Shown piece after piece: positions 1 through 16,037 of a stretch of 43,322 bases of DNA. The notes under the pieces were generated by a model, which was given only the letters and a program-made list of their open reading frames with translations, searched no databases and had not been told where the DNA came from. Each line of letters begins with the position of its first letter. Positions within the stretch are counted from its first letter, which is position 1. The DNA is from a virus. Taxonomy: Duplodnaviria; Heunggongvirae; Uroviricota; Caudoviricetes. The stretch lies in IMG/VR virus record IMGVR_UViG_638341087_000022; one strand, given 5' to 3'. Position numbers and translations under genes: made by a program.

Positions 1-1194
1 ATGATCACCGACACAAAGCTCAGGAAGGCGCTCGGCAAGAAAAGAGATGATATCGAGATTATTTCTGATTCGCACGGGCTCAACGCCAGAATCAGCCAGG
101 CCGGAAAAATATCATTTTTCTATCGGTATCGCTGGGCCGGTAAAGCGGTAAAACTCAATGTTGGTGATTATCCTGCAATGAGTATCACCCAGGCAAGAGA
201 GCGTCGCCAACAATTCAGAAACTGGTTAACTGAGGGACTGGATCCGCGAGAGCAGGTGAAGCTGGATAAGCAGACCCGACAGGAAGCGATGTCCGTTGCC
301 GAAGCGTTCAATTACTGGATTGAAAGGCACTGTATCGCTAACGGGCTAGTTAAAGTCGATTACTATCGCCAGGTGTTTGAGAAACATATCGCCGAACCGA
401 TGAAGAATGTCAAAGTCGATAACACAGCGAAAATGCACTGGATCAACGTCTTCGATTCTATAGAAAGCAGGGTGATGGCTCATTACATGCTTTCGCTGTG
501 CAAACGGGCGTTTAGGTTCTGCGTTAACAGAAGTGTGATCGCCTCAAACCCACTCGAGGGATTACTGCCATCTGATGTCGGGCAAAAGCCTAAAAAGAGA
601 ACTCGCAGGATGGACGATGACGATCTGCGCAAAATCTATCAGTGGTTGAAAAGCCATATGTCGATAGAGTCCGTTTTCCTGGTGAAATTTATTATGCTTA
701 CCGGATGCCGTACGGCTGAGATTCGACTTAGTGAGAGATCATGGTTTCGATTGGATGATAATGAGTGGGTCGTGCCTGCGGGCAGTTATAAAACTCGGGT
801 ACATATTAGAAGGGGACTCTCAGACGCCGCCGTTAACCTGGTCAGAAATCACCTCAAGAAAATAAACACCAATCACCTGGTGACTTCACAACGTAAAATT
901 GATGGCGGGATCAAAGATTCGCCCGTTCATTCACCTGTGGCATCCAATTACGCCCGTTCTATTTGGAATGGAACAGGTATGGCAGAGTGGTCGCTTCATG
1001 ATATGAGGCGGACGATAGCCACAAATCTCTCTGAGTTAGGTTGCCCGCCGCACGTAATTGAAAAGCTGCTCGGGCATCAGATGGTGGGGGTTATGGCGCA
1101 TTACAACCTTCATGACTATATCGATGATCAGAAACACTGGCTCCGCGTTTGGCAGAGCCATCTTGAAGAGATCATCGGAGAGCCCTTCAGTTAA
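1..1194 (+). CDS. int: Tyrosine recombinase / integrase, P4-like family (397 aa)
   Basis: ATG at window position 1; N-terminus resembles P4-type integrases; C-terminal HDMRRT...LGH...Y catalytic region typical of tyrosine recombinases. Reads inward, so the attachment site is expected left of the window. Confidence 0.85.
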
Positions 1195-1710: not shown

Positions 1711-2829
1711 TCAGGCCACGTATTCCGGTTTCATATCCGCCAGGGTGATGCTGAATTGATCGTGCAGTTCATCGCCTAAGTGACGCTTTGAAGATGCAAG
1801 CATGCGCTCGGCTTCAGCGAACCGTTCGGCTGCATGCGGCTCGTCGGGCTGGGGCAGGGATTTAATAGCCTCCTCAACCTTGTTGCGTGCATCCACTAGG
1901 TAATAACGCTTTACGGCTTTGTTTTTCAGCTCGGTGAATAGTGCGGATCCCAGCGTAGCTTTCGCCGTTTCAATGTCGGCACGCAGCGATTTGGCGCTAT
2001 CCACGTCCTGAGCAGATTCGATGCGTTCGCGGAAATCATCGGCAAGAGAGTCGACATTTACCGACGATTCCTGTGCGCTTTGCGTGGTTGTGACGGTGTC
2101 ACCTGAGATATCAGCCAGGCTAACGCGTTGCGGCGTTGGGTTGATCTCTTTTTCTGTGCGCTGTTCAATCTCATCAGGGGTGTACACACCAAGAACAACT
2201 GCAGGGCAATATAGGCGCGCCCAGTATTTGAGTGCCAGATAAGCGATCTGCTGTTTCGGGTTTGATACCCAAAGTGGAGAATTACGTGTGATTACGCTGG
2301 AGAGGAAAACAGGCTCTCCCCAGGTGATATCACTTTCACCGCGAATAACGGCACCTACCCGTACCGACAGTCCTTGTTCATCAGCACTTTCCCAACCGCG
2401 TACCATTTCTTTCTTGTCGTACGTCCCGCCACCTTTCGCAGGCTTTTTAACGGTTATCTCGCGGCTGCTGGCACATTTCGACCAGTCGCCCTCGTACTCA
2501 TAGTGAAAGCGGCCAACGATGGCGTTTGAGCTGGAGATCACCGCATTAACCAGTTGCGCTTCGTATCCCAGGACACCGTTAACCAGGTGCGTCTTTTGCG
2601 CCACGGCGTAAGGGTTCATACCCCACTGCATCGCCTGCATGATGATGGCCATGCAGTCTGCCGGATTGCCGCGGAGGTGCTCAGGCACCGTTACGGCTGC
2701 CTGTGCCATCAACCCGGCGACAGACTGAAGCTGGGTTAAAGCCTGCACGTTGAAAATGGCATTGCTGGCTGAGATCGTGTTTGGAGTCTGCTGTTCAGCG
2801 GTTACGATATTCGTGTTTTCCATCATCAT
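1711..2829 (-). CDS. RecT/Redbeta-family single-strand annealing protein (372 aa)
   Basis: Triple ATG start with AAGGGGA RBS; motif QWGMNPYAVAQK parallels lambda Bet QYGLNPWTKE; lies immediately downstream of the RecE-like gene as in Rac/lambda recombination modules. Confidence 0.7.
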   Translation of the reverse strand: MMMENTNIVTAEQQTPNTISASNAIFNVQALTQLQSVAGLMAQAAVTVPEHLRGNPADCMAIIMQAMQWGMNPYAVAQKTHLVNGVLGYEAQLVNAVISSSNAIVGRFHYEYEGDWSKCASSREITVKKPAKGGGTYDKKEMVRGWESADEQGLSVRVGAVIRGESDITWGEPVFLSSVITRNSPLWVSNPKQQIAYLALKYWARLYCPAVVLGVYTPDEIEQRTEKEINPTPQRVSLADISGDTVTTTQSAQESSVNVDSLADDFRERIESAQDVDSAKSLRADIETAKATLGSALFTELKNKAVKRYYLVDARNKVEEAIKSLPQPDEPHAAERFAEAERMLASSKRHLGDELHDQFSITLADMKPEYVA

Positions 2830-2834
2830 TCCCC

Positions 2835-5800
2835 TTATGCCTGAGTACGCAGCGCTTCAAGGCGGCGCAGGTCGAAGTCGTTCAGTTCGTCGGTGTAGTC
2901 AGCAGTGATTGGCGCTGGCCATTCACCTGTGTCGAATCCGGTTGCGATATTGCGCATCGCTTTGCGGTACTCGAGCATACCCAGCTCCAGTAGTTCAGCG
3001 GATGCCTCGATGATGGCGATCCAGTGGTAGTTCTCGTCTTTGTTGACGAAAATCCAGAAGAACTGATCCAGCGCTGCGGTTTCGCAGTACATAGCCGCGC
3101 TCAGGTGATAATCACGTTCAATAATTTCCCGGTGTAGCCTGGCGCGCAGGCTTTCCTGCTTAACATTCCACATGCTGATGGTTTTCAGGTCTGCACCTAT
3201 ACGCACGCCATCCAGGTCGATCTCAAGGTCAGGGCGCACACGAACTTCCAAGCCCGTCTCCTCGTCAAAACCAAAGTAGCTCACCTCAACGGCTCGGCTA
3301 GGGTGGGTCAGCAGCATGCCGGCGGTCGGGTGTGCCAGAAGCGCTTTTTGAATATTCAGCGCGGTGCTCAGCTGCTGGCGGGTGACCAGCACTTTTCCTT
3401 CCGGGTTATCGCGCCAGGCATCCAGCAGTTCGTCGGCAAATACGGCATCTGGTTTGACTGCCTTCACGGCCTGGATCATGTCTGCTTTGGTACCGGACAC
3501 TTTCAGTGGTGCCGGTTTCTGTGCTTCCTGAGCCACAAGGTCAGGGTTGATGATTGCCAACTGCTCCAGCAGCGCGTCACGGCTGCCGCTGGTTTTAACC
3601 GGCGGCGGCAGGGTGGCGTTGTACTCTTTAATGCATGCCTTCATTGCCGTCGCCGTCTGCTTCTGGTCACCATCAATACGCTGGAAGTCAGCTGGCAGCG
3701 CCATATAGGTCTGTGCCGTTTCTTCCAGGTTAGCGCCAAGCGGAACCTGCGGCGGCAGGGTGGCGTTGTACTCTTCCAGTAACACCTTGATGTCGTCGGC
3801 AGACAGCAGCGCCGGCAGGCTGGCATTGTGCTCATCGATAAAGGCGCGCAGGGTCGCGGCCGTTGTGAATGCGCCTTCAGGGATCACCGGTTCAACGCTG
3901 AATTCTGCGTCCAGTAGTTCAGGCTGCAACGCCAGCGCATGCACCAAGTTGCCCATGTCCAGCACCGCTGAGCGCTCTTTGACGATGGTTTTCTCTACGT
4001 GGCGCGCATTGAAGTACATCAGCGAAACGCGCGCATCTTTCACCTGGGTTGAGCTGATGCCGTTGGCGGCGTGGTAAACCTCGTTTGGCAGCCCTTCATA
4101 GCGGCCTGGCTCGAAATAAGCGGGATAAACAACAGCTGGTTCGTCAGATTGCGCTTCTGGCTCGGTTTGTGCTGCAACTGGTTCGGTTTGGCTTACAGAA
4201 TCGCTATTTTTGGCGACAGAATCCGTATTCTGGTTTACATCGTCCTTCTGGCTGGTATCTGACTCTTCACCAGACTCCAGACTGCTTTCGCCTGGCTGTA
4301 CTTCATCACCAGCTTGTTTTTCATCACTGACAGTTTCTTGAACCTGCACATTGCTGGTGGTCTCCGTAGCCTTTTTCGTGCCATGAGTTGCTGAGTTCTG
4401 CAGCAAAGCCGTAACGTCGAATATTCCGTTGCCGACATTTTTAACCAGTTCTTGTTCGACTTTCTGCGGTTGTGCTGCCGCTTCCTCTGCGCGGCGGCGT
4501 GCTCCTTCTTCACGCACGCGTTGCAGGTTCTCTTCGTGAGTGCAGAAGGATTTGCGCGGAGACTCCTTACCTTCAGGTTGGGGAATTTCCTGTGCTGCGG
4601 GTTCAGCCTCATGCAACGGCAATAACTCGACCGCGGAATTGAACGCGGCTGTCATGGTCTGGTTAACAAATTCCAGGTGAGCGACAGGAGTTAAATGAAT
4701 ATTTTCCGGTGCGATACGTACCAGGTTAAAAATAGCCGTGCGGTTAACACCCAGAACGCCTGGCTGATTGCGCAGGATGTTGCTCCATGATTTCCATGGT
4801 TCTTCTTTTTTGGTCACGATTTCTTTAGCGCGACGAAGAATGCTGCCCGGGATCTCGAAGTGGTTGAAGTCCATAGGCAGAAGGGCACACGCAATCTCTA
4901 AATCGAGAGTGTCCAGTGTGTGGTGTGCGTCAGGTCCACGGTCAGTGACGTAACCGCCGTCGGCATTAGTGCCGGAATCAGTACGCTGCACACTACTGAT
5001 GCGATTACCGGCGGCCCATTCGCGAACGAGGATACCGCGGTCGATGTGATCTGTAGCGAACCACAATTTCAAAAACTGGATTAAGGTTGCGAGTTCAGGG
5101 ATTTTTCCATCGACAGGGAAGACTTTCTTAACGGCATTCACGACTTTATGAATATCGTGCTCAATGGCTTTTTTGAATGCTTCCACATTCTCAGCTGCCA
5201 GCAGCAGGTTCTGGACGTACGCGTCATCGGTGTCCATCTCAAGGAGGACAATCTCATTTTTCTGCCCTGCGTCGATGTGATAGAGATATTCACCATCACC
5301 GATGAACTGAGCCAGTACGCGCTGGCGGAATGGCAGGGTGGCAACAACGATCAGGTTCGGTTGCTGTGTCTGCTGGGATTGCTCTTCGGTATCGACTTCA
5401 CCATCAACGACGCCACCTTCTGCCCGGCCGTTCTCGTCGGTCTGGATACCGTCCTCAACAGTGAGATCTTGACCCGTTGTAACGTCAGCAGCGTTGCTGG
5501 TTTCAGTTTTGAGCAACTGCAACTTACCACTGCGCCAGTCTTCTACCAGTTGATTGCGGTCACCGGCATCGGTGTTCACCCAGTCAGACATGAATGCAGC
5601 GATCAATCTTGGTTCGTGCTCTTCGTCTGGTGTGAAAATGTCCTTAACCGCCCGAATCATTTTCCACTCAGCATTCAGGCTGAGTTTGGCGGTCGCGGGC
5701 ACATCGTTCCTTGCCACAAGCAGGCTATGGAGATATGTATTGCCTTCATCCAGTGACATTTCGCTGGCAGCCAACTGCTGCTCTTTAGTGACGTGGGTTT

Positions 5801-6224
5801 GGTATTTATCGTTCATCAGATGGACGGCAAAGCGGACCGCTGGAGTACGGTTTTCAACCGGGACAATTTCGGACGCAGTCGCATCTTCAACGATTACGGT
5901 CGGAGTAGGTGTGTAGGGGGCGTAAACGGAACCAGTAGACACACCAGCGGCTTTTGGCAGCCAGGTGCGCCCATCGTCCTGAAGCTCGTAGCGATCACAC
6001 CAGGTAAAATCAACTTCACCTTCTTTCGGCAGGCCGTCGACAACTGGGAAATCAGTGCGAATCGGTTTGGCGTAGTCCTTACCCCGACCTGTTTCGATAC
6101 CTGCATCTTCCAGCGCAACATCCAGCATCAGATTGGCGCGAGCCTCGGTTTTAGCAGTGAACCAGACCACTGCATCTTGCTTTCCGGATTTCTGAGTGGC
6201 TTTAACCACATTAAAGAATTCCAT
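2835..6224 (-). CDS. recE: RecE-like exodeoxyribonuclease VIII (1129 aa) with internal repeats
   Basis: Very long ORF; C-terminal region resembles the RecE nuclease domain; paired with the annealing-protein gene; contains three EYNA(T/S)LPP-type repeat units. Confidence 0.7.
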   Translation of the reverse strand: MEFFNVVKATQKSGKQDAVVWFTAKTEARANLMLDVALEDAGIETGRGKDYAKPIRTDFPVVDGLPKEGEVDFTWCDRYELQDDGRTWLPKAAGVSTGSVYAPYTPTPTVIVEDATASEIVPVENRTPAVRFAVHLMNDKYQTHVTKEQQLAASEMSLDEGNTYLHSLLVARNDVPATAKLSLNAEWKMIRAVKDIFTPDEEHEPRLIAAFMSDWVNTDAGDRNQLVEDWRSGKLQLLKTETSNAADVTTGQDLTVEDGIQTDENGRAEGGVVDGEVDTEEQSQQTQQPNLIVVATLPFRQRVLAQFIGDGEYLYHIDAGQKNEIVLLEMDTDDAYVQNLLLAAENVEAFKKAIEHDIHKVVNAVKKVFPVDGKIPELATLIQFLKLWFATDHIDRGILVREWAAGNRISSVQRTDSGTNADGGYVTDRGPDAHHTLDTLDLEIACALLPMDFNHFEIPGSILRRAKEIVTKKEEPWKSWSNILRNQPGVLGVNRTAIFNLVRIAPENIHLTPVAHLEFVNQTMTAAFNSAVELLPLHEAEPAAQEIPQPEGKESPRKSFCTHEENLQRVREEGARRRAEEAAAQPQKVEQELVKNVGNGIFDVTALLQNSATHGTKKATETTSNVQVQETVSDEKQAGDEVQPGESSLESGEESDTSQKDDVNQNTDSVAKNSDSVSQTEPVAAQTEPEAQSDEPAVVYPAYFEPGRYEGLPNEVYHAANGISSTQVKDARVSLMYFNARHVEKTIVKERSAVLDMGNLVHALALQPELLDAEFSVEPVIPEGAFTTAATLRAFIDEHNASLPALLSADDIKVLLEEYNATLPPQVPLGANLEETAQTYMALPADFQRIDGDQKQTATAMKACIKEYNATLPPPVKTSGSRDALLEQLAIINPDLVAQEAQKPAPLKVSGTKADMIQAVKAVKPDAVFADELLDAWRDNPEGKVLVTRQQLSTALNIQKALLAHPTAGMLLTHPSRAVEVSYFGFDEETGLEVRVRPDLEIDLDGVRIGADLKTISMWNVKQESLRARLHREIIERDYHLSAAMYCETAALDQFFWIFVNKDENYHWIAIIEASAELLELGMLEYRKAMRNIATGFDTGEWPAPITADYTDELNDFDLRRLEALRTQA

Positions 6225-6363
6225 GTGAGATCCTCATTTTTGGGTGTTAGAATCCCCGGACCATTGATAGCGCCCATTGGGTTAACTTTGGTTTTAATGT
6301 TGTTTCCGGTGTAACTTTGGTCGGTACCACCGGACGTAGATCCCGCCTTGCGCGGGTTTTACG

Positions 6364-6525
6364 TTAGCCTTCGTGAGCCATCTGGTCGTGCGAAGCGCAA
6401 CGTTTGGAGCAATACTCTTTTTCTTTGCGCGCCAGCTGTGAGCCGTTGCGATAGAGAAGGGTGCTCTTGATTACTTCCTCCGTTTTAACCGGCTTGCCGC
6501 AATATCCGCATTTCTTGTCTAACAT
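6364..6525 (-). CDS. Small C4 zinc-ribbon protein (53 aa), not in the ORF track
   Basis: ATG at 6525 with GGAGGA RBS; CGYCG...C..RC cysteine pairs; sits in the position of Rac ydaE between recE and the kil-position gene. Confidence 0.4.
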   Translation of the reverse strand: MLDKKCGYCGKPVKTEEVIKSTLLYRNGSQLARKEKEYCSKRCASHDQMAHEG

Positions 6526-6536
6526 GACATCCTCCG

Positions 6537-6743
6537 CTAGTGGCTGAGTCCATGCCCCAGACCGTTCAGATAAACTTCAACCAGCAAATCCTTGGTGTAA
6601 GTCATTTCTACGCCGCGATGCAGATACAAACGTCCGCGAGCGTTAGCTGATGCCGTCCAGGTTGAGTCTTTGTGTTTGACGAGCATCCCCGGCTGAACTG
6701 CGCCGCGGTTTACTGTCTGTGTACCGTAGTGCTGATGAACCAT
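6537..6743 (-). CDS. Small early-left protein (68 aa), KilR-position
   Basis: Track ORF 6537..6887 begins with TTG; the only ATG is at 6743 and has a GGAG RBS; function not recognisable. Confidence 0.35.
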   Translation of the reverse strand: MVHQHYGTQTVNRGAVQPGMLVKHKDSTWTASANARGRLYLHRGVEMTYTKDLLVEVYLNGLGHGLSH

Positions 6744-6989
6744 GATGTTCTCCAGTTTTTCTGAGTGAACTTCGCTGGTGGTGCCGCGGCGCTGATCTTC
6801 ACGGTTGAGCGTTTTAACTCTGCAATTCACCACCGCGAAGCTCACTCTGTGCTTTGCCCTTGTCGCCAGGCTGGCGGAACGTTTCAAACCTACTGCGCGT
6901 TAATCTCACCACCTCATTCCGGTCTTCGTATGCCCCGGACAGCTTCTTCGTGGGCGTCCTGCTTTGGTGGTTGTGTTGATGGAGTAATT

Positions 6990-7030
6990 AAACACAATGT
7001 TTATTTACGCGTCAACATAATGAGTGTTTT
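6990..7030. promoter_or_regulatory. OL-like operator cluster
   Basis: Motifs AAACACAATGTTTA and CAACATAATG repeat the half-sites found in the cI-cro intergenic region. Confidence 0.35.
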
Positions 7031-7127
7031 TATATAAACAAAAAGTTTAGTTGGTTGCGCTCGTTGGCACGAGTAGTATGTTTTGTGGTCTATTTTGTGG
7101 TTATAAAAAAATCGATGAGGGTGAGTT

Positions 7128-7334
7128 ATGGATCGTGACGAACTGGAAGAAGACCGCGCAGCGTTTATTGCGGGGGAGATTGGTGGCGCAGTTGTCAGTC
7201 TGATAGCTAACGGGATTGTGATCAGCCGCGATGCGATTGTGGATAGTCTAGAGGCTAAGCGCAGGGTAGTGGGAAACGTCATTCACAAGTGGGTATTGCG
7301 GGATGCGGCTGCTATGGTGAGAAAAGGGCAATAA
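7128..7334 (+). CDS. Hypothetical small protein (68 aa)
   Basis: ATG with GAGGGTGAG RBS; ends just before a perfect hairpin terminator; opposite orientation to both flanking operons. Confidence 0.4.
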   Translation: MDRDELEEDRAAFIAGEIGGAVVSLIANGIVISRDAIVDSLEAKRRVVGNVIHKWVLRDAAAMVRKGQ

Positions 7335-7336
7335 AA

Positions 7337-7358
7337 AACCCAGTTCGGTAACTGGGTT
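7337..7358. terminator. Bidirectional intrinsic terminator
   Basis: AACCCAGTT-CGGT-AACTGGGTT, 9-bp perfect stem, flanked by an A-run upstream and a T-rich tract downstream. Confidence 0.55.
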
Positions 7359-7364
7359 ATTGCT

Positions 7365-7790
7365 TTATTCAACAGATGATGGGGGGGTCGGTGCTTTCTT
7401 AAAGATCGACCACTGAGAAATGTAGGTCAGCAACCTTGAGCTTAACTCGAGTTCTTTTTGTAATATTTCGTCATAACGTTTTTTTGCTGCTTGCATGGTC
7501 GCATCACTAGCGTGATTGTCATCCATAATGATCTTTAGCCTTTTCTTTTCTCGGCTTGAGCATATTGTAAATAACAGACCTGTAAATGACATTCCACCAA
7601 AATCCTTTAACGTTTTGATTACAAAAAGAAGAATCAAAGACAGAAAAGGAACAGATCTGTAGGCCCAATCACGAAACTCACCGTCAGGAAAGAAGATAGG
7701 AATAGCATCTGTAGCATAACCACATATGAGGGAGACAATTAGAAAAGGTAGTCCATTTTTAGCTACATTTTTAACGTTATCGTTAGCCAT
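7365..7790 (-). CDS. Membrane protein (141 aa), possible SieB-type exclusion protein
   Basis: ATG at 7790 overlaps the stop of the upstream gene by 8 nt; about three hydrophobic segments in the N-terminal half, charged helical C-terminus; AT-rich. Confidence 0.5.
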   Translation of the reverse strand: MANDNVKNVAKNGLPFLIVSLICGYATDAIPIFFPDGEFRDWAYRSVPFLSLILLFVIKTLKDFGGMSFTGLLFTICSSREKKRLKIIMDDNHASDATMQAAKKRYDEILQKELELSSRLLTYISQWSIFKKAPTPPSSVE

Positions 7791-8166
7791 GATTTTTTCC
7801 CGAGAACGATTTCGAGTCAACATGTAACTTTTGTGTTTTGACTACATAATACGCAAATCCAATCTTAACTAACCAATAAGCTACTGGTATGAGTGCTGCG
7901 TAAAGAGGGATATAGTACATAACCTTACCTCCTGTTAACCACACTATAACACCTAGCATCACTATTAGCGCGACAGAAAATGCTTTCAGCCCAACACAGC
8001 TATCAGGATGTGAAACACTGTTCCTTAGCAACAATATCCTGGATTCATCAAGTGTGTAAGGAATATCGCCAACATGATTTTCGATTTTTGGGAAGGTCTC
8101 AAATACTTCAACCCGATCAATCGAAATAATTGAGCTTGATTGATGATCTAAGCAAACTGCAGCCAC
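7783..8166 (-). CDS. Membrane protein (127 aa; 2 predicted TM helices)
   Basis: GTG start at 8166 with GAGAGGGA RBS, 2 nt after the stop of the upstream gene; C-terminal hydrophobic helices AFSVALIVMLGVIVWL and YYIPLYAALIPVAYWLV. Confidence 0.45.
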   Translation of the reverse strand: MAAVCLDHQSSSIISIDRVEVFETFPKIENHVGDIPYTLDESRILLLRNSVSHPDSCVGLKAFSVALIVMLGVIVWLTGGKVMYYIPLYAALIPVAYWLVKIGFAYYVVKTQKLHVDSKSFSGKNHG

Positions 8167-8168
8167 TG

Positions 8169-8492
8169 TTATCCCTCTCGAACCTTTAGTGATACTCGGT
8201 TAGCAGCAAATGTGGCAATGAAACCACATTCTACACATATAACAGGGAATGCCCATATACCTCGGCCAGCTGAATGAGGTAGAGGAAGGGTAATTATTGC
8301 AGGATAGTCTTGACTATCTTCTCGTGGAGGAACTCCCCAAAGCGTATGCTTACAAAGCGGACAGGCCATCTCGCCATGTTTTTCTTCGAGGCGTTGAAAA
8401 TAATCTCGAAATTCTTGTCTTGATATTGATAGCGTCAATGCTGTTGTATTGACACTTTCCTGACTTTTTTCTTCTTCAACCTGTTCGCCCAT
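8169..8492 (-). CDS. Zn-ribbon protein (107 aa)
   Basis: ATG at 8492; CPLC...CVEC cysteine pairs; first gene after cI, separated from it by a hairpin. Confidence 0.45.
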   Translation of the reverse strand: MGEQVEEEKSQESVNTTALTLSISRQEFRDYFQRLEEKHGEMACPLCKHTLWGVPPREDSQDYPAIITLPLPHSAGRGIWAFPVICVECGFIATFAANRVSLKVREG

Positions 8493-8603
8493 CTCAGCTC
8501 TCAATATAATGATAATTAACTGGTAAGTGAATTTTGCATATCGTTAAGATGTATCCCATTGGTACAGAAACATCTGAGGGGTAAGTAGCTTTTAACTACC
8601 GTG

Positions 8604-8999
8604 CTACTCACCATCCCCCTTAATCCGCCGTCCCATGTACTTGGCGTACAGTTCATCGAGTTCTTTCAACCGTAGAGATACGATCCGCAACATGTTCTGT
8701 TGTTCTTCTTCGTTTGGGAGTTGATTATAGAGTTCCAACAGTCTCCGTTCGTCGTGTCTCAAACCGTCCTTAGCATCCACGTCCTGACCTAGAACCCACT
8801 CAAGACTTACGCCTAGCGCATCGGCAAGTTTTATTGCTGAGCTTTTTCCTATCGCTCCTCTGACAAACCAGTTGTTGACTGATTGTGCGCTCACACCACA
8901 GATTCTCGCTATATCCGCTTTGGATATGCGCTTCTTCTCGATGATTTCATTTAACCGCCGAACCTGCGGGTTATCTGTTTGGTGTGTGTTTTTTCTCAT
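8604..8999 (-). CDS. CI-type repressor, HTH (XRE family), no S24 peptidase domain (131 aa)
   Basis: HTH segment ISKADIARICGVSAQSVNNW; divergent from a Cro-like gene across an operator-bearing intergenic region; too short for a LexA-like autocleavage domain. Confidence 0.7.
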   Translation of the reverse strand: MRKNTHQTDNPQVRRLNEIIEKKRISKADIARICGVSAQSVNNWFVRGAIGKSSAIKLADALGVSLEWVLGQDVDAKDGLRHDERRLLELYNQLPNEEEQQNMLRIVSLRLKELDELYAKYMGRRIKGDGE

Positions 9000-9031
9000 A
9001 TATCAAGATTCTAAACTAAAAGTTTATCGCC

Positions 9032-9072
9032 TCAACATTCATAATGTTGACTTGAACATAAACATAATGTTT
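9032..9072. promoter_or_regulatory. OR-like operators
   Basis: TCAACATTCATAATGTTGA (7-bp inverted arms) and AAACATAATGTTT (13-bp palindrome) between the divergent repressor and Cro-like genes. Confidence 0.5.
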
Positions 9073-9102
9073 AATTTGGTTCGTTATTACTTGGAGCCAA
9101 AT

Positions 9103-9336
9103 ATGAAAGCACTTGATAAAGCAATATGCATCGTAGGGGGTGCAACCCGTTTAGCAGAAAAGCTCAATGTATCCCCAATGACGGTCAGTCACTGGCGTCA
9201 CCGTGACAATGGATTCGTACCGGCTAACCGTGTCATTCCTATTTTCAATGCTACAGGTGTAACTCCACATGAGTTACGCCCTGATTTGTACCTCAACCCT
9301 ACGGATGGATTACCGGCTCAGGAAGCGAGGGCATAA
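9103..9336 (+). CDS. Cro/YdaS-like HTH regulator (77 aa)
   Basis: Internal ATG of track ORF 8872..9336 with GGAG RBS; HTH segment GGATRLAEKLNVSPMTVSHW. Confidence 0.6.
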   Translation: MKALDKAICIVGGATRLAEKLNVSPMTVSHWRHRDNGFVPANRVIPIFNATGVTPHELRPDLYLNPTDGLPAQEARA

Positions 9337-9338
9337 CC

Positions 9339-9878
9339 ATGCAGTCACTATCACTTCATCAAAATAGCGGATATCAAACGGCTGCGATGATAAATCGCAA
9401 TCAACCTGTCTCGGTAGATAAACATGACCAGATCCGCGATGCCGTTCGTGCGTGGGCGGGTGTAGATGGTCAGGATGTCGTTTCTGCTCTGATCATCGAA
9501 GAGTACCAGGCTCAAGGGGGAGACGAGATCACTTTCCCTGATGACCTCAGCCGACAGCGTCAGAAGCTTTTCCGCTTTCTGGATAACCATTTCAACAGCG
9601 AACGGTACCGCGAAAACGTTCGCCAGCTGACTCCGGCAATCCTCGCTGTCCTGCCGATTGAATACCGCAATCGTCTGCTACCAGAAGACAACGTAATGGC
9701 TCGTCTGGCAAGGCTGGAGAAGGAAACCAGCGAAGCGAAGATTGCTGTCGCAATGGATGCGCCACGTCATCAGAAGCTGAAAGAGTTGAGCGAGGGGATC
9801 GTGGAGATGTATCGCGTTGACCCTGGGTTAACCGGTCCGTTGATGGAAATGGTGCAGATTATGCTGGGGGCTATATGA
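9339..9878 (+). CDS. CII-position protein, possibly YdaT-like (179 aa)
   Basis: Immediately after the Cro-like gene and before O; assignment is by position and vague recollection only. Confidence 0.35.
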   Translation: MQSLSLHQNSGYQTAAMINRNQPVSVDKHDQIRDAVRAWAGVDGQDVVSALIIEEYQAQGGDEITFPDDLSRQRQKLFRFLDNHFNSERYRENVRQLTPAILAVLPIEYRNRLLPEDNVMARLARLEKETSEAKIAVAMDAPRHQKLKELSEGIVEMYRVDPGLTGPLMEMVQIMLGAI

Positions 9879-9962
9879 CCGGTTCAAAAATGGCGAAAGC
9901 CGCGGTGCTCGAACACCAACGGCTTTCAGGTGCAAAAACAGTGCGTAATTGCGGAGAACAGT

Positions 9963-10871
9963 ATGTCAAACACCGCTGAAATAATCAATTTCCCAAATAA
10001 AACCGAACAACCGGGAGGTCGTATGGCCGACCTGTCGAACGGGTATACCAAGGTCGCTAACGAGATCCAACAGCTTAAGCCTCGCCTGAGACTGTCAGGC
10101 CGGGAATGGCAATGTTTTGAGGCGGTGATCTGGCTTACCTACGGCTGGAACAAGAAACAGGACCGCGTGACAAATACGGTTATTGCCGAGCTTACGGGCC
10201 TGAGCGATACGCATGTATCGGACGCGCTTAAGTCTCTCGCAGAACGCAAAATCATCTTTTCACAGAAGCAGGGCATGATGAAAATCGTCGGTGTAAACAC
10301 TGACCTTTCAGCATGGATTTTAGACAAACCGGAAACGGGAAGAAAATTCCCGAAAACGGGAAAATCCTTCCCGAAATCAGGAATAACCTTCCCGAAAACG
10401 GTAGACACCCAATACAAGAACAAGAACAGTATTAAAAGATCTTCGTCCGAGAATTCTGACGAATCCTCTGACGCACGTCTGAAGAAATTTTTATCAACTC
10501 ATCCTGAAGCTGCGGTCTACACACCATCCGGTGCGAAGTGGGGCTCTGCTGAAGACCTCGAGACAGCTAAGTGGATTTCCTCCAGGGTGAAGCTGATTAA
10601 CCCAACCTGCAAAGCCCCGGACATGACCTCCTGGTCTAACACTGTTCGCCTGATGCGCCAGATAGACGACCGGTCGCACCAGGACATCTGCGCGCTGTAT
10701 GACTGGGCTAGCAAACACCACTTCTGGCAGACCAACATCCTGAGTCCCGAAAGCCTGCGTAAGCAGTGGGACAAGCTGACAATGCAGCGTAACGCCGGAG
10801 GTGAGCAGCGCGCTGTCAAGCCAGATCTGGACTTCAACAACACTGACTGGGCCTATGGGGTGATCCGATGA
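9963..10871 (+). CDS. O: Replication initiator, lambda O-like (302 aa)
   Basis: N-terminus NTAEIINFPNKT and TYGWNK..DR match lambda O; iteron repeats are embedded in the coding sequence. Confidence 0.8.
   Translation: MSNTAEIINFPNKTEQPGGRMADLSNGYTKVANEIQQLKPRLRLSGREWQCFEAVIWLTYGWNKKQDRVTNTVIAELTGLSDTHVSDALKSLAERKIIFSQKQGMMKIVGVNTDLSAWILDKPETGRKFPKTGKSFPKSGITFPKTVDTQYKNKNSIKRSSSENSDESSDARLKKFLSTHPEAAVYTPSGAKWGSAEDLETAKWISSRVKLINPTCKAPDMTSWSNTVRLMRQIDDRSHQDICALYDWASKHHFWQTNILSPESLRKQWDKLTMQRNAGGEQRAVKPDLDFNNTDWAYGVIR
10326..10445. repeat. Replication origin: four iterons plus AT-rich tract inside O
   Basis: Four repeats of the TTCCCGAAAACGGGAA type followed by an AT-rich tract; same pattern as lambda ori iterons. 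Confidence 0.6.
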
Positions 10872-11557
10872 AATCTCTTGCAGAGCAGATGCGTAACCAC
10901 GACCGCGAGCAGATGAGCCGCATGGCCCATAACCTGCCAGAGCAGTACCAGGAGTGCGCGCCGGTCGAGCAGGTGGCGCAGGTATTCAACAAGCTGTTCA
11001 ACGAGCTGCGCGCCGCGTTCCCGGCCAGCATGGCGAACTTCCGCACCCAGGAAGACCTGAACGAATTCCGCCGTCAGTGGCTGCTGGCGTTTCAGGAGAA
11101 CGGGATCCACACCATGGCTCAGGTCGATGCCGGCATGCGCATTGCCCGCCGCCAGGAGCGCCCATTCCTGCCGTCGCCGGGCCAGTTCGTCGCCTGGTGC
11201 AAGCAGAGCGGCGGCGCGCTGGGCGTCAACGTTGACCAGGTGATCGCCGAATACTGGGACTGGCGTAACCGCTCGTTCGAATTCATCTCCAGCGAGCAAT
11301 TTCCATGGTCGCAGCCGGTCATGTACCACATTTGCGTAGAATTGCGCCACCGCAGCACCGAGCGCCAGTTAACGCATGGTGAACTGGCACGCGAGGCAGG
11401 CGATCTGCTGGACATGTGGGAAAGGCGCGTCACCGAGGGTAAGCCAGTGCCGCCGGTACGCCGGGCTATTGCCGCACCAGCTGCCGAGCAAGGGCCGACG
11501 CCGATCCAGCTGCTGCTGGCCAAGTACAACCGCAACAAGTCGAACGGGATGGTGTGA
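10868..11557 (+). CDS. P: Replication protein P (helicase loader), lambda P-like (229 aa)
   Basis: Strong colinear match to lambda P, e.g. RPFLPSPGQFVAWC; ATGA overlap with O. Confidence 0.85.
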   Translation: MKSLAEQMRNHDREQMSRMAHNLPEQYQECAPVEQVAQVFNKLFNELRAAFPASMANFRTQEDLNEFRRQWLLAFQENGIHTMAQVDAGMRIARRQERPFLPSPGQFVAWCKQSGGALGVNVDQVIAEYWDWRNRSFEFISSEQFPWSQPVMYHICVELRHRSTERQLTHGELAREAGDLLDMWERRVTEGKPVPPVRRAIAAPAAEQGPTPIQLLLAKYNRNKSNGMV

Positions 11558-12387: not shown

Positions 12388-12406
12388 TAAAACATCGCTA
12401 ATTCAA

Positions 12407-12432
12407 CCCGCTACGGCGGGTTTTCTTTTTTT
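12407..12432 (+). terminator. Intrinsic terminator
   Basis: CCCGC-TACG-GCGGG followed by TTTTCTTTTTTT. Confidence 0.6.
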
Positions 12433-12494
12433 ACTACTGACAGAAAATTAACAATTTGTGCTCTTAAAGCGTTGATCATTTCCGCGCATAGGTA

Positions 12495-12514
12495 TACTGT
12501 ATAAAAACACAGTA
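12495..12514. promoter_or_regulatory. LexA (SOS) box
   Basis: TACTGTATAAAAACACAGTA: perfect CTGT-N8-ACAG, 19 bp upstream of the DinI-like start codon. Confidence 0.65.
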
Positions 12515-12532
12515 AATGCAATGGGGGCCATT

Positions 12533-12766
12533 ATGAAAGTTGAATTAACCATTGATCGCATGAAAGAACTTCCTAAAGGCGCAGTACCAGCACTGGAGAA
12601 AGAACTGCTTAAGCGCCTGAATGATCACTATGACAATTGCAGGCTCACAATCCGCCGTGCCGGGGCCGATGGGTTAAGTGTTTTTGGTGGTGACAAGGAC
12701 GATAAAAAGAAAATTGAATCAATCCTCCAGGATACCTGGGAAAGCGCTGACGACTGGTTTTATTAG
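12533..12766 (+). CDS. dinI: DinI-family protein (77 aa)
   Basis: C-terminal ILQDTWESADDWFY matches E. coli DinI; GGGGG RBS; LexA box upstream. Confidence 0.8.
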   Translation: MKVELTIDRMKELPKGAVPALEKELLKRLNDHYDNCRLTIRRAGADGLSVFGGDKDDKKKIESILQDTWESADDWFY

Positions 12767-12883
12767 AATTGCGCTTAAGGCTGGCGCGCATTTTTCAGAA
12801 TACCGCAATTTGCGTAACCCTCTGATGCTGCTGCCGACAATCTTTAATCGCGTCTGTTAGTCGCTCGAAGGGAGAACATAAAT

Positions 12884-13132
12884 GTGAGTGATTCAGCTTT
12901 GCAAACGTCAGAAGACAACTGGTATGACATTGTAAGAAGGTCTGACGGCTGCGTGGTGTTTAGCTTTCCTTCATCGGGCAGGCATCTAATTTATCGCGTC
13001 AATGGCATGGTTTCTATGCGGCCTTTGCTGGATGATGAAGAGGTCTTTACTCCTAATGGTTTTATGCAGTTTATTCACCGTCTCGGCTACCGGGTAACCC
13101 CACCTTCTGATAATATGAAATCAACGGTCTGA
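12884..13132 (+). CDS. Hypothetical protein (82 aa), downstream of the DinI-like gene
   Basis: GTG start in the ORF track; no terminator between it and the DinI-like gene, so it may be co-transcribed under LexA control. Confidence 0.4.
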   Translation: MSDSALQTSEDNWYDIVRRSDGCVVFSFPSSGRHLIYRVNGMVSMRPLLDDEEVFTPNGFMQFIHRLGYRVTPPSDNMKSTV

Positions 13133-13166
13133 ACAACCGTAACCTACTGCGCCACGGAGAGAAACC

Positions 13167-13766
13167 ATGGCGCACGAACTACAACTCATCAAGCAGTCAT
13201 CAGGAATCCTGATCCCCGCGACGCCGGAGACCAGCGATATTCTGCAATCAAAAATCAAACTCGGCGCCGTGCTGGTAGCCGAATTTCGCCAGGTGAGGAA
13301 TCCCGCATTCCATCGCCGTTTTTTTGCGCTCCTGAATCTCGGGTTTGAATACTGGGAACCTACTGGAGGGGCGATATCCAGCAATGAGCGTAAGCTCGTA
13401 AATGGTTATGCTAAATTCCTCGCGGCATTTGGTGGAAACGAAGGCGCACTGCTGGATGCTGCCGAGCAATATCTGGACCGCATCGCCGATAAGCGCGCCG
13501 GTAGCATCAGCATCTGCAAATCCTATGATGCTTATCGCGCCTGGGTGATCGTCGAGTCTGGTCACTATGACGCTATTCAGCTTCCTGACGGAACACTTCG
13601 CAAACATCCCCGCAGTATTGCCTTCGCTAACATGGACGAAACCGAATTCCAGGATCTGTATAAATCTGCTCTGGATGTGCTCTGGCGCTGGATATTGTCC
13701 CGCACTTTCAACAGCAGGGAAGAGGCCGAGAATGCCGCCGCCCAGCTTATGAGCTTTGCGGGGTAA
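13167..13766 (+). CDS. nin-region protein of unknown function (199 aa)
   Basis: ATG with GGAGAG RBS; sits where lambdoid prophages carry NinB/YbcN-type genes; no confident motif. Confidence 0.45.
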   Translation: MAHELQLIKQSSGILIPATPETSDILQSKIKLGAVLVAEFRQVRNPAFHRRFFALLNLGFEYWEPTGGAISSNERKLVNGYAKFLAAFGGNEGALLDAAEQYLDRIADKRAGSISICKSYDAYRAWVIVESGHYDAIQLPDGTLRKHPRSIAFANMDETEFQDLYKSALDVLWRWILSRTFNSREEAENAAAQLMSFAG

Positions 13767-15962: not shown

Positions 15963-16037
15963 GCCGGTCTAGTTCAGTGGGAGAACGGCAGATTTGTAAT
16001 CTGCGCGTCAGAGGTTCGATTCCTTTGCCCGGCACCA
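15963..16037 (+). tRNA. tRNA-Thr (anticodon UGU), phage-encoded
   Basis: Manual cloverleaf: acceptor GCCGGTC/GCCCGGC (one U6-C67 mismatch), D-arm GTTC-AGTGGGA-GAAC, anticodon arm GCAGA-TTTGTAA-TCTGC, T-arm AGAGG-TTCGATT-CCTTT, discriminator A plus CCA. Confidence 0.65.

Follow-up and report, generated by a model that had tools for sequence, protein, structure and literature searches.

A predicted lambda-like repressor switch with triple operators on both sides of the immunity region of a Rac/Gifsy-like Escherichia coli prophage

The viral record IMGVR_UViG_638341087_000022 (below, the window, i.e., the whole stretch of DNA analysed, 43,322 base pairs (bp) in length) is a Rac/Gifsy-like lambdoid prophage of Escherichia coli. 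It carries similar motifs on both sides of a phage repressor gene and its neighbours, and this raises the question whether a single repressor controls both early promoters and whether the enclosed genes are expressed together with it. Our reading, to which we assign a probability of about 0.85, is a lambda-like switch in which a 131-residue repressor acts on triple operators at the left (OL) and right (OR) side of the region, with promoterless cargo behind the repressor gene and induction by an antirepressor. Observed directly are motif statistics, site geometry, conservation, covariation with the repressor type, cassette distribution and domain content. From these we infer protein binding, promoter activity, co-transcription, activation of the predicted promoter pRM and the route of induction. 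The genes between the two motif-bearing regions are those listed in the initial annotation (the repressor, a three-gene cargo cassette at 7365–8492 on the minus strand, and a small gene on the opposite strand); they are given here with the two regulators to their right.

8604–8999, minus strand: repressor, 131 amino acids, with an N-terminal helix-turn-helix and a C-terminal helical domain (Pfam HTH_3, 2.9e-08; Phage_CI_repr, 1.6e-05; phrog_8)
8169–8492, minus strand: cargo gene 1, 107 amino acids, with a conserved CPLC...CxEC zinc-ribbon-like motif
7783–8166, minus strand: cargo gene 2, 127 amino acids, with a hydrophobic C-terminal half
7365–7790 (RefSeq start), minus strand: cargo gene 3, 141 amino acids, with a hydrophobic N-terminal part and a helical C-terminal part
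7128–7334, plus strand: small opposite-strand accessory gene, 68 amino acids (phrog_3975)
9103–9336, plus strand: Cro-like regulator of the YdaS family, 77 amino acids (Pfam YdaS_toxin, 7.6e-16; phrog_35)
9339–9878, plus strand: cII-like regulator of the YdaT family, 179 amino acids (Pfam YdaT_toxin, 1.9e-25; phrog_163 'CII-like transcriptional activator')

The predicted operator unit, T(A/C)AAC-N5-GTT(T/G)A, is palindromic and 15 bp long. The exact sequence TAAAC-N5-GTTTA occurs four times in the window (6989–7003, 7035–7049, 9012–9026, and 9059–9073), compared to a mean of 0.02 in shuffled sequences, none of 100 shuffles reaching four; if one mismatch is allowed, the same four sites only are returned, against 0.85 expected. 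All four lie within two regulatory gaps, two to the left of the cargo and two in the repressor–cro gap. Midway in each pair is a weaker site with one good TCAAC half (7012–7026 and 9036–9050), so that the site centres are 6996, 7019, and 7042 at OL (spacings 23 and 23 bp) and 9019, 9043, and 9066 at OR (24 and 23 bp). The order of sites is mirrored between OL and OR, with the best site nearest the lytic genes on either side and 2,070 bp between the two site-a centres. The six sites are:

6989–7003: OL site a, TAAACACAATGTTTA, strong, overlapping the predicted pL −10 hexamer (20.7 bits; arms invariant in the OL alignment)
7012–7026: OL site b, TCAACATAATGAGTG, weak site in the middle, good in one half only and sharing bases with the pL −35 hexamer (14.0 bits)
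7035–7049: OL site c, TAAACAAAAAGTTTA, outer strong site (19.9 bits; conserved in the OL alignment)
9012–9026: OR site c, TAAACTAAAAGTTTA, overlapping the pRM −10 hexamer (18.5 bits; conserved in the OR alignment)
9036–9050: OR site b, CATTCATAATGTTGA, weak middle site, abutting the pRM −35 and overlapping the pR −35 hexamer (14.3 bits)
9059–9073: OR site a, TAAACATAATGTTTA, a perfect palindrome that shares bases with the −10 hexamer and spacer of pR (23.4 bits, the best in the window)

The scores come from a weight matrix made from the six sites and compared with 30 shuffles of the window. The four strong sites (18.5–23.4 bits) all exceed the best shuffled score (15.4 bits), and the next best score elsewhere in the window is 11.8 bits. 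Around the middle sites, the block GTCAACAWAATGAGT at OL, where site b is exactly midway between a and c, and the block CTCAAYATTCAWAAWGTTGAC at OR are kept in three genera. OR site b is also a part of a 19-bp palindrome (9032–9050); taking the latter as the middle operator was rejected for its uneven spacing (22 and 25 bp), and the 15-bp register was kept because its spacing of 24 and 23 bp mirrors OL.

The initial annotation had described the shared motif as half-sites of the form ATAATGTT(G/T)A in both regions. This holds at OR, where the only two exact matches in the window are found, both in the repressor–cro gap (9041–9050 and 9064–9073); the left copies are one-mismatch variants. At one mismatch, there are 12 matches window-wide against 4.45 expected, five of them in the two regions (6994, 7012, 9041, 9059, and 9064). 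The 10-mer, with its exact match only at OR, was rejected as the operator unit and replaced by the 15-bp palindrome, for which the signal common to both regions is stronger than first described. The search for further copies also yielded the two outer sites, 7035–7049 and 9012–9026, missed earlier.

For comparison, 23 related loci were fetched (denoted below by L numbers). All 16 loci with the window repressor type (in E. coli, in Salmonella at 74% and in Klebsiella at 93% repressor identity, and in one Klebsiella phage record) contain exactly four TAAAC-N5-GTTTA sites: a pair at a distance of 47 bp in the repressor–cro gap and, past the cargo, a pair at 46 bp. The other seven contain none; six of them are without this repressor type, and the seventh, L006, has it as a passenger copy. 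Alignments with Salmonella and Klebsiella show three conserved blocks per side, in which the arms of the sites are kept, while the spacers and the five central bases of the sites vary.

In the heteroimmune locus L003, the C-terminal domain of the repressor is shared with the window and the helix-turn-helix domain is changed; here, four TAAAT-N5-GTTTA sites are found at OL and OR, both pairs 47 bp apart. Likewise, the upstream repressor of L006 shares the C-terminal domain and differs in the helix-turn-helix, and TAAAT-N5-GTTTA sites occur at OL and OR, with three OR sites 24 bp apart. The TAAAC or TAAAT type of site thus covaries with the repressor type at both promoters, which is the best non-experimental evidence for one repressor controlling both. 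Together with the 16 of 16 loci and the overlap of the sites with predicted pL and pR, this comparison supports the control of both early promoters proposed in the initial annotation. Homology between the window and L003 is lost over 6978–9253, except for the segment encoding the repressor C-terminus, 8605–8711. By this comparison, the region 6979–9252 is an immunity region in the classical sense, as had been claimed for the interval defined by the motifs.

The sites are placed around three predicted promoters:

6987–7015, minus strand: pL, −35 TTGACG (7015–7010), 17-bp spacer, −10 TTTAAT (6992–6987), read from the sequence
9047–9075, plus strand: pR, −35 TTGACT (9047–9052), 17-bp spacer, −10 TTTAAT (9070–9075), read from the sequence and conserved in the alignment
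9008–9035, minus strand: pRM, −35 TTGAGG (9035–9030), 16-bp spacer, −10 TAGAAT (9013–9008), from a promoter scan

Predicted pL and pR have an identical −10 hexamer, a 17-bp spacer, and −35 hexamers one base apart, and sites a and b cover each of them. The pL hexamers with their spacer, and also the pRM hexamers, are kept in the Salmonella and Klebsiella relatives. The pRM −10 hexamer overlaps OR site c, and its −35 hexamer abuts OR site b; the lambda sites OR3, OR2, and OR1 have a very similar placement relative to pRM. A mirror-image pRM-like promoter at OL was considered and rejected, its hexamers GTGTTT and TAGTTG being degenerate. The repressor ATG (8999) lies 8 nucleotides (nt) past the pRM −10 hexamer and is not preceded by a Shine–Dalgarno sequence, hence the repressor mRNA may be leaderless or nearly so; leaderless paaR2 and cI are precedents (PMC8630535).

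Most likely, the repressor binds as a dimer to the 15-bp palindromes, three per side in mirror order. At OR, sites a and b would cover pR and site c the pRM −10 hexamer, while site b, next to the pRM −35, would sit where lambda cI sits when it activates its own promoter. The OL sites a and b would cover pL, which would drive kil, ydaE, recE, and recT. In the lysogen, one protein would then shut both lytic operons and regulate itself; its probable competitor for these sites is the YdaS-type Cro, with the YdaT-type protein probably in the cII role.

In Pfam, the 131-residue repressor matches helix-turn-helix families only, with no S24 peptidase domain. It has no cleavage domain, and induction of the antirepressor type is proposed. 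A candidate module spans 12405–13766, starting approximately 0.9 kb past the replication genes:

12405–12432: terminator-like hairpin
12495–12514, plus strand: near-consensus LexA box, TACTGTATAAAAACACAGTA
12533–12766, plus strand: dinI homologue, first gene of a predicted SOS-controlled operon (Pfam DinI, 3.9e-26; NCBIfam PRK10597)
12884–13132, plus strand: GTG-start open reading frame (ORF) of 82 amino acids (phrog_340, unknown function), candidate antirepressor by position only

A DUF1367 gene follows the 82-residue ORF. In Gifsy prophages, a non-cleavable repressor is taken off the DNA by a small LexA-controlled antirepressor, whose GUG-start gene lies between dinI and irsA (PMC3121763). 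In Gifsy-1 and Gifsy-3 (repressors GfoR and GfhR; Lemire et al., 2011, PMC3121763), as in the window, the repressor also has about 130 residues and lacks a cleavage domain; a LexA box with a terminator-like hairpin before it lies about 0.9 kb past the replication genes, and dinI comes next, with a small GTG-start ORF and another conserved gene behind it. The module matches this layout, and by analogy with Gifsy, induction would most likely proceed through the LexA-controlled dinI–antirepressor operon at 12.5–13.1 kb. The Salmonella loci differ in their cargo (a ParA-like protein and two further genes vs. the zinc-ribbon and membrane-protein trio of the window) and in having a cII of the Phage_CII type, as opposed to YdaT.

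The nearest system with all steps experimentally shown is CP-933P/Sp12 with its paaA2–parE2 cargo (Jurenas et al., 2021, PMC8630535). There, gel shift, footprinting, and reporter assays showed that PaaR2, YdaS, and YdaT use OR and OL operators. The palindromes repeated at OR are bound by PaaR2 and YdaS, both of which also repress PL, whose hexamers are those of PR; the paaR2 mRNA is leaderless, with the toxin–antitoxin pair downstream in the same operon (PMC8630535). The window is similar in its short non-cleavable repressor, leaderless start geometry, YdaS-type Cro and YdaT-type cII (38% identical to that of CP-933P) to the right of the repressor, palindromic operators that are repeated at OR and PL, and cargo directly downstream of the repressor. 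It differs in the operator, which in CP-933P is an 18-bp palindrome on GTTTAGTAA with four repeats at OR, and in the cargo, a toxin–antitoxin pair in CP-933P, with PL933P directly after it and no small opposite-strand gene between. The YdaS proteins of the two show no BLASTP similarity (E 0.42), and the YdaT site of CP-933P, TTGATT-N6-AATCAA, is absent from the window.

Several points weigh against the lambda-like reading. The middle sites, at about 14 bits, are inside the shuffle range and not significant by score alone; they hence rest on position and conservation, and their conservation may partly reflect the −35 hexamers that they overlap. The −10 hexamer of pL and pR, TTTAAT, is non-consensus, and the promoter scan made no call for either, in the case of pL because the hexamer has T at position 2. 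Homology of the repressor to PaaR2 was rejected (BLASTP E 3.5; the query was the gene in the O157:H7 genome, L008:3501–3872, with its start rebuilt from published primers), so that the two are not detectably homologous. Homology to GfoR and GfhR is suggested by context only: the window repressor is 74–75% identical to 131-residue Salmonella repressors that are followed by parA, none of which is given by its cluster name as GfoR or GfhR, and 'parA-int' deletions in a strain list imply that parA also follows gfoR and gfhR (PMC3121763). GfoR runs as a dimer in gel filtration (PMC3121763), hence lambda-like cooperativity or OL–OR looping is not implied. Relative to L003, cro also changes, up to 9253, and covariation alone therefore cannot separate Cro from the repressor. 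Finally, a promoter-like sequence, TTCACT-17-TATATT, matching at 9 of 12 positions, is seen at 8531–8503, just upstream of cargo gene 1.

The point about cro bears on the alternative that the motifs are operators mainly for the Cro-like YdaS, or promoter sequence duplicated between pL and pR, and not repressor sites. The outer sites, 7035–7049 and 9012–9026, are difficult to reconcile with it, as they lie outside pL and pR and yet have the same palindrome and are equally conserved; the dyad symmetry of the sites is, moreover, that expected for helix-turn-helix dimers. What speaks for this alternative is that the −10 hexamers, identical in the two promoters, and the −35 hexamers, nearly so, fall within the conserved blocks, and that YdaS of CP-933P footprints the same interval as the repressor, a case of operators shared by repressor and Cro (PMC8630535). 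As a replacement for repressor binding, we regard it as very improbable. To our knowledge, repressor and Cro share operators in every lambdoid switch studied, hence Cro binding would add to the lambda-like reading and not replace it.

The initial annotation had the enclosed cargo co-expressed with the repressor in the lysogen. This is likely for the three minus-strand genes; it does not extend to the small plus-strand gene, which, being on the opposite strand, cannot be co-transcribed with the repressor. The trio is tightly packed (a 2-nt gap between genes 1 and 2, and an 8-nt overlap of genes 2 and 3), has 37–41% G+C against about 50% in the flanks, and ends at a strong terminator:

7337–7358: bidirectional intrinsic terminator at which both the small gene and the cargo operon end (z −4.58 for an RNA fold of −16.2 kcal/mol, with a U-run after it on the minus strand)

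No intrinsic terminator is seen in the repressor–cargo gap, where two hairpins are without U-runs and the fold is not unusual (z −0.85). The common strand, the absence of a terminator between, and the occurrence of the cassette behind unrelated repressors make co-transcription likely. Every copy examined follows a prophage repressor gene directly and points the same way, across five different immunity contexts, and only about 30 nt upstream of the start codon, i.e., the ribosome-binding region, are conserved; the cassette thus looks promoterless and reliant on repressor transcription. The cargo would most likely be read through from pRM and stopped at 7337–7358, as rexAB in lambda.

Alternatively, the cassette might have its own promoter, at the sigma-70-like match at 8531–8503, and be expressed independently of the repressor, the link between them being position only. 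The hexamers of this match are, however, not conserved in the four other copies of the cassette, and the scan of the whole region returns eight promoter-like matches where 5.4 are expected by chance. In favour of it, the gap between repressor and cargo is 111 nt, compared to 40–85 nt in other cassettes, and lambda rexB has an internal promoter; against it, the gap in L022 is only 49 nt. Given the constant position and orientation behind the repressor, with no terminator between, we consider an own promoter of the cassette unlikely, and transcription from pRM remains the preferred reading.

The small gene is swapped among relatives, with a junction at its start codon (7132); its versions are phrog_3975 in the window, a 36%-identical 64-residue family in L001, and the FumD/DUF2767 family in L003 and L022. 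The 80 nt upstream of it stay with the immunity type. Two candidate promoters, TTGGTT-17-TAGTAT (7051–7079) and one using TATAAA (7102–7107), are not distinguishable, and neither is conserved in Klebsiella. The gene has no PADLOC match at E 0.01 or better. A hairpin with a T-rich tract is observed on the plus strand at 7059–7074, adjoining OL site c; at the same position, Klebsiella has a hairpin whose stem differs in sequence, with GTATGTTT after it as in the window.

The region 6300–9400 is 99.8% identical to chromosomal E. coli prophages, and parts of it are present in 79 of 5,426 complete E. coli genomes. Homologues of the repressor number 707 in Enterobacteriaceae, and a sequence search of PDB with it gave no match at E 0.01 or better. 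Among the Rac-like elements of E. coli, many are defective, and the circuit could be a decayed relic in a cryptic prophage, its motifs persisting by descent without control. Against this, ORFs from the integrase through recombination, replication, and the lysis side to the tail side are seen in the window without obvious truncation, and the sites are kept in three genera while the neighbouring bases change, which indicates selection; furthermore, the exact repressor sequence is found on 692 contigs, and a sequenced Klebsiella phage record has the same four sites. Decay is thus a rather far-fetched explanation, and we retain that of a lambda-like switch.

Compared to lambda itself, the locus has the same divergent repressor and cro genes, three operators overlapping predicted pR and pRM, with the middle one abutting the pRM −35, another triple operator in mirror order some 2 kb away, at pL, site spacing of 23–24 bp, a repressor mRNA predicted to be leaderless or nearly so, and passenger genes downstream of the repressor that end at a terminator before OL. 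It differs in that the 131-residue repressor is without an S24 self-cleavage domain, the 15-bp operators are unrelated in sequence to the lambda 17-mers, the Cro belongs to the YdaS and the cII to the YdaT family, no N gene is recognised, the cargo is unrelated to rexAB, and an extra small gene lies on the opposite strand inside the region.

Among relatives of the same immunity, homology ends at the repressor stop codon (8605 or 8613) and resumes at 7132 or 7341. This slot is occupied by at least seven different gene sets:

107-, 127-, and 141-residue proteins: the trio of the window
101-residue and 211/217-residue pair
YoaK, HicA, HicB, and a 141-residue protein (L002:2556–3945)
149-residue and 136-residue pair
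ParA-like ATPase with 128- and 220-residue proteins, Salmonella (L009:4455–6335)
54-residue and DUF6414 proteins, Klebsiella (L014:4565–5531)
IS1-disrupted version, Klebsiella phage

The window cassette, in turn, is found behind four unrelated repressors, including those of the S24 type (228 and 240 amino acids) and one of 134 amino acids with a helix-turn-helix; these other repressors share 25–29% identity with that of the window, and the repressors of L019–L021 have Peptidase_S24, unlike the window repressor. Copies of cargo gene 3 behind other repressors are 73–76% identical. In L019, a YoaK-like mini-gene precedes the window-type cassette.

The slot resembles that of rexAB and of bstA in BTP1, where bstA is downstream of cI and mosaic diversity is known to concentrate in the cI–N interval (Owen et al., 2021, PMC8585504): there too, genes lie directly downstream of the repressor and presumably share its promoter, and in the window the corresponding interval holds a cassette also found behind different repressors. 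The difference lies in the trio itself, which has no match in Pfam, NCBIfam, or PADLOC (PADLOC-DB v2, E 0.01 or better) and a weak partial match only in PHROGs. The protein of cargo gene 1 is rare, with six homologue clusters in a search of 5.8 billion proteins. Its AlphaFold model (mean predicted local distance difference test score, pLDDT, 71.7) shows helices and then a small sheet; Foldseek against PDB gave non-significant zinc-ribbon-like matches only, the best at E 0.41. The products of genes 2 and 3 have strongly hydrophobic segments.

We tentatively suggest that the trio, a zinc-ribbon protein with two likely membrane-spanning proteins, might be an undescribed, promoterless RexAB-like exclusion or abortive-infection module, confined to the slot downstream of prophage repressors and moving between heteroimmune lambdoid phages on the promoter of the host repressor; the slot might even capture a second, orphan repressor, as in L006. 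The exclusion or abortive-infection role is a guess from position.

In L006 (E. coli 1368KP), a window-type repressor with 101/211-residue cargo (L006:4339–5240) is located 19 nt downstream of an L003-type repressor. No TAAAC-N5-GTTTA operator is found anywhere in the locus. The window-type repressor is an orphan second repressor in the cargo slot; it is without a Shine–Dalgarno sequence. For the upstream repressor, RefSeq has a GTG start that probably makes the gene too long, so that it runs over an operator at 5148–5162. Translation of the orphan repressor, if it occurs, would make the lysogen immune to a second type of phage.

The genes on either side of the immunity region are:

1–1194, plus strand: integrase
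1711–2829, minus strand: recT
2835–6224, minus strand: recE, 1129 amino acids
6364–6525, minus strand: ydaE-like gene
6537–6743, minus strand: kil-like gene, first of the leftward (pL) operon (phrog_294 'Kil protein', E 2.3e-34; a 68-residue coding sequence in RefSeq relatives)
9930–11557, plus strand: replication genes O and P

The mechanical ORF list contains a TTG-start ORF of 116 residues at 6537–6887, the upstream part of which coincides with the conserved pL leader; this part is probably spurious, as RefSeq relatives call the 68-residue Kil-like sequence only. With no N gene recognised, pL is followed by kil after a 240-nt conserved leader, hence a cis-acting RNA element in the leader is conceivable. 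The first approximately 115 nt of the predicted transcript (6870–6980, minus strand) are almost invariant in E. coli, Salmonella, and Klebsiella and across immunity types, and RNAalifold gives an outer helix around hairpins, with a few compensatory changes. Rfam returned no RNA family in the region, including the pL leader. Further to the right, a tRNA gene is located inside the prophage at 15963–16034 (Rfam tRNA, 58.8 bits).

The architecture, with operators at OL and OR and cargo at the position of rexAB, follows a textbook principle and is no surprise to the specialist. What is obtained here is a concrete operator model, 15 bp with three sites per side, for a repressor type common in prophages of Enterobacteriaceae, the family being present in E. 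coli, Salmonella, Klebsiella, Enterobacter, Citrobacter, and Cronobacter. As the TAAAC or TAAAT type covaries with the repressor's DNA-binding domain, immunity groups would be predictable from sequence. The sharply bounded slot, starting at the repressor stop codon and holding at least seven unrelated sets, including HicAB, ParA-like proteins, and several of no known family, is a useful place to seek accessory or defence genes expressed in the lysogen.

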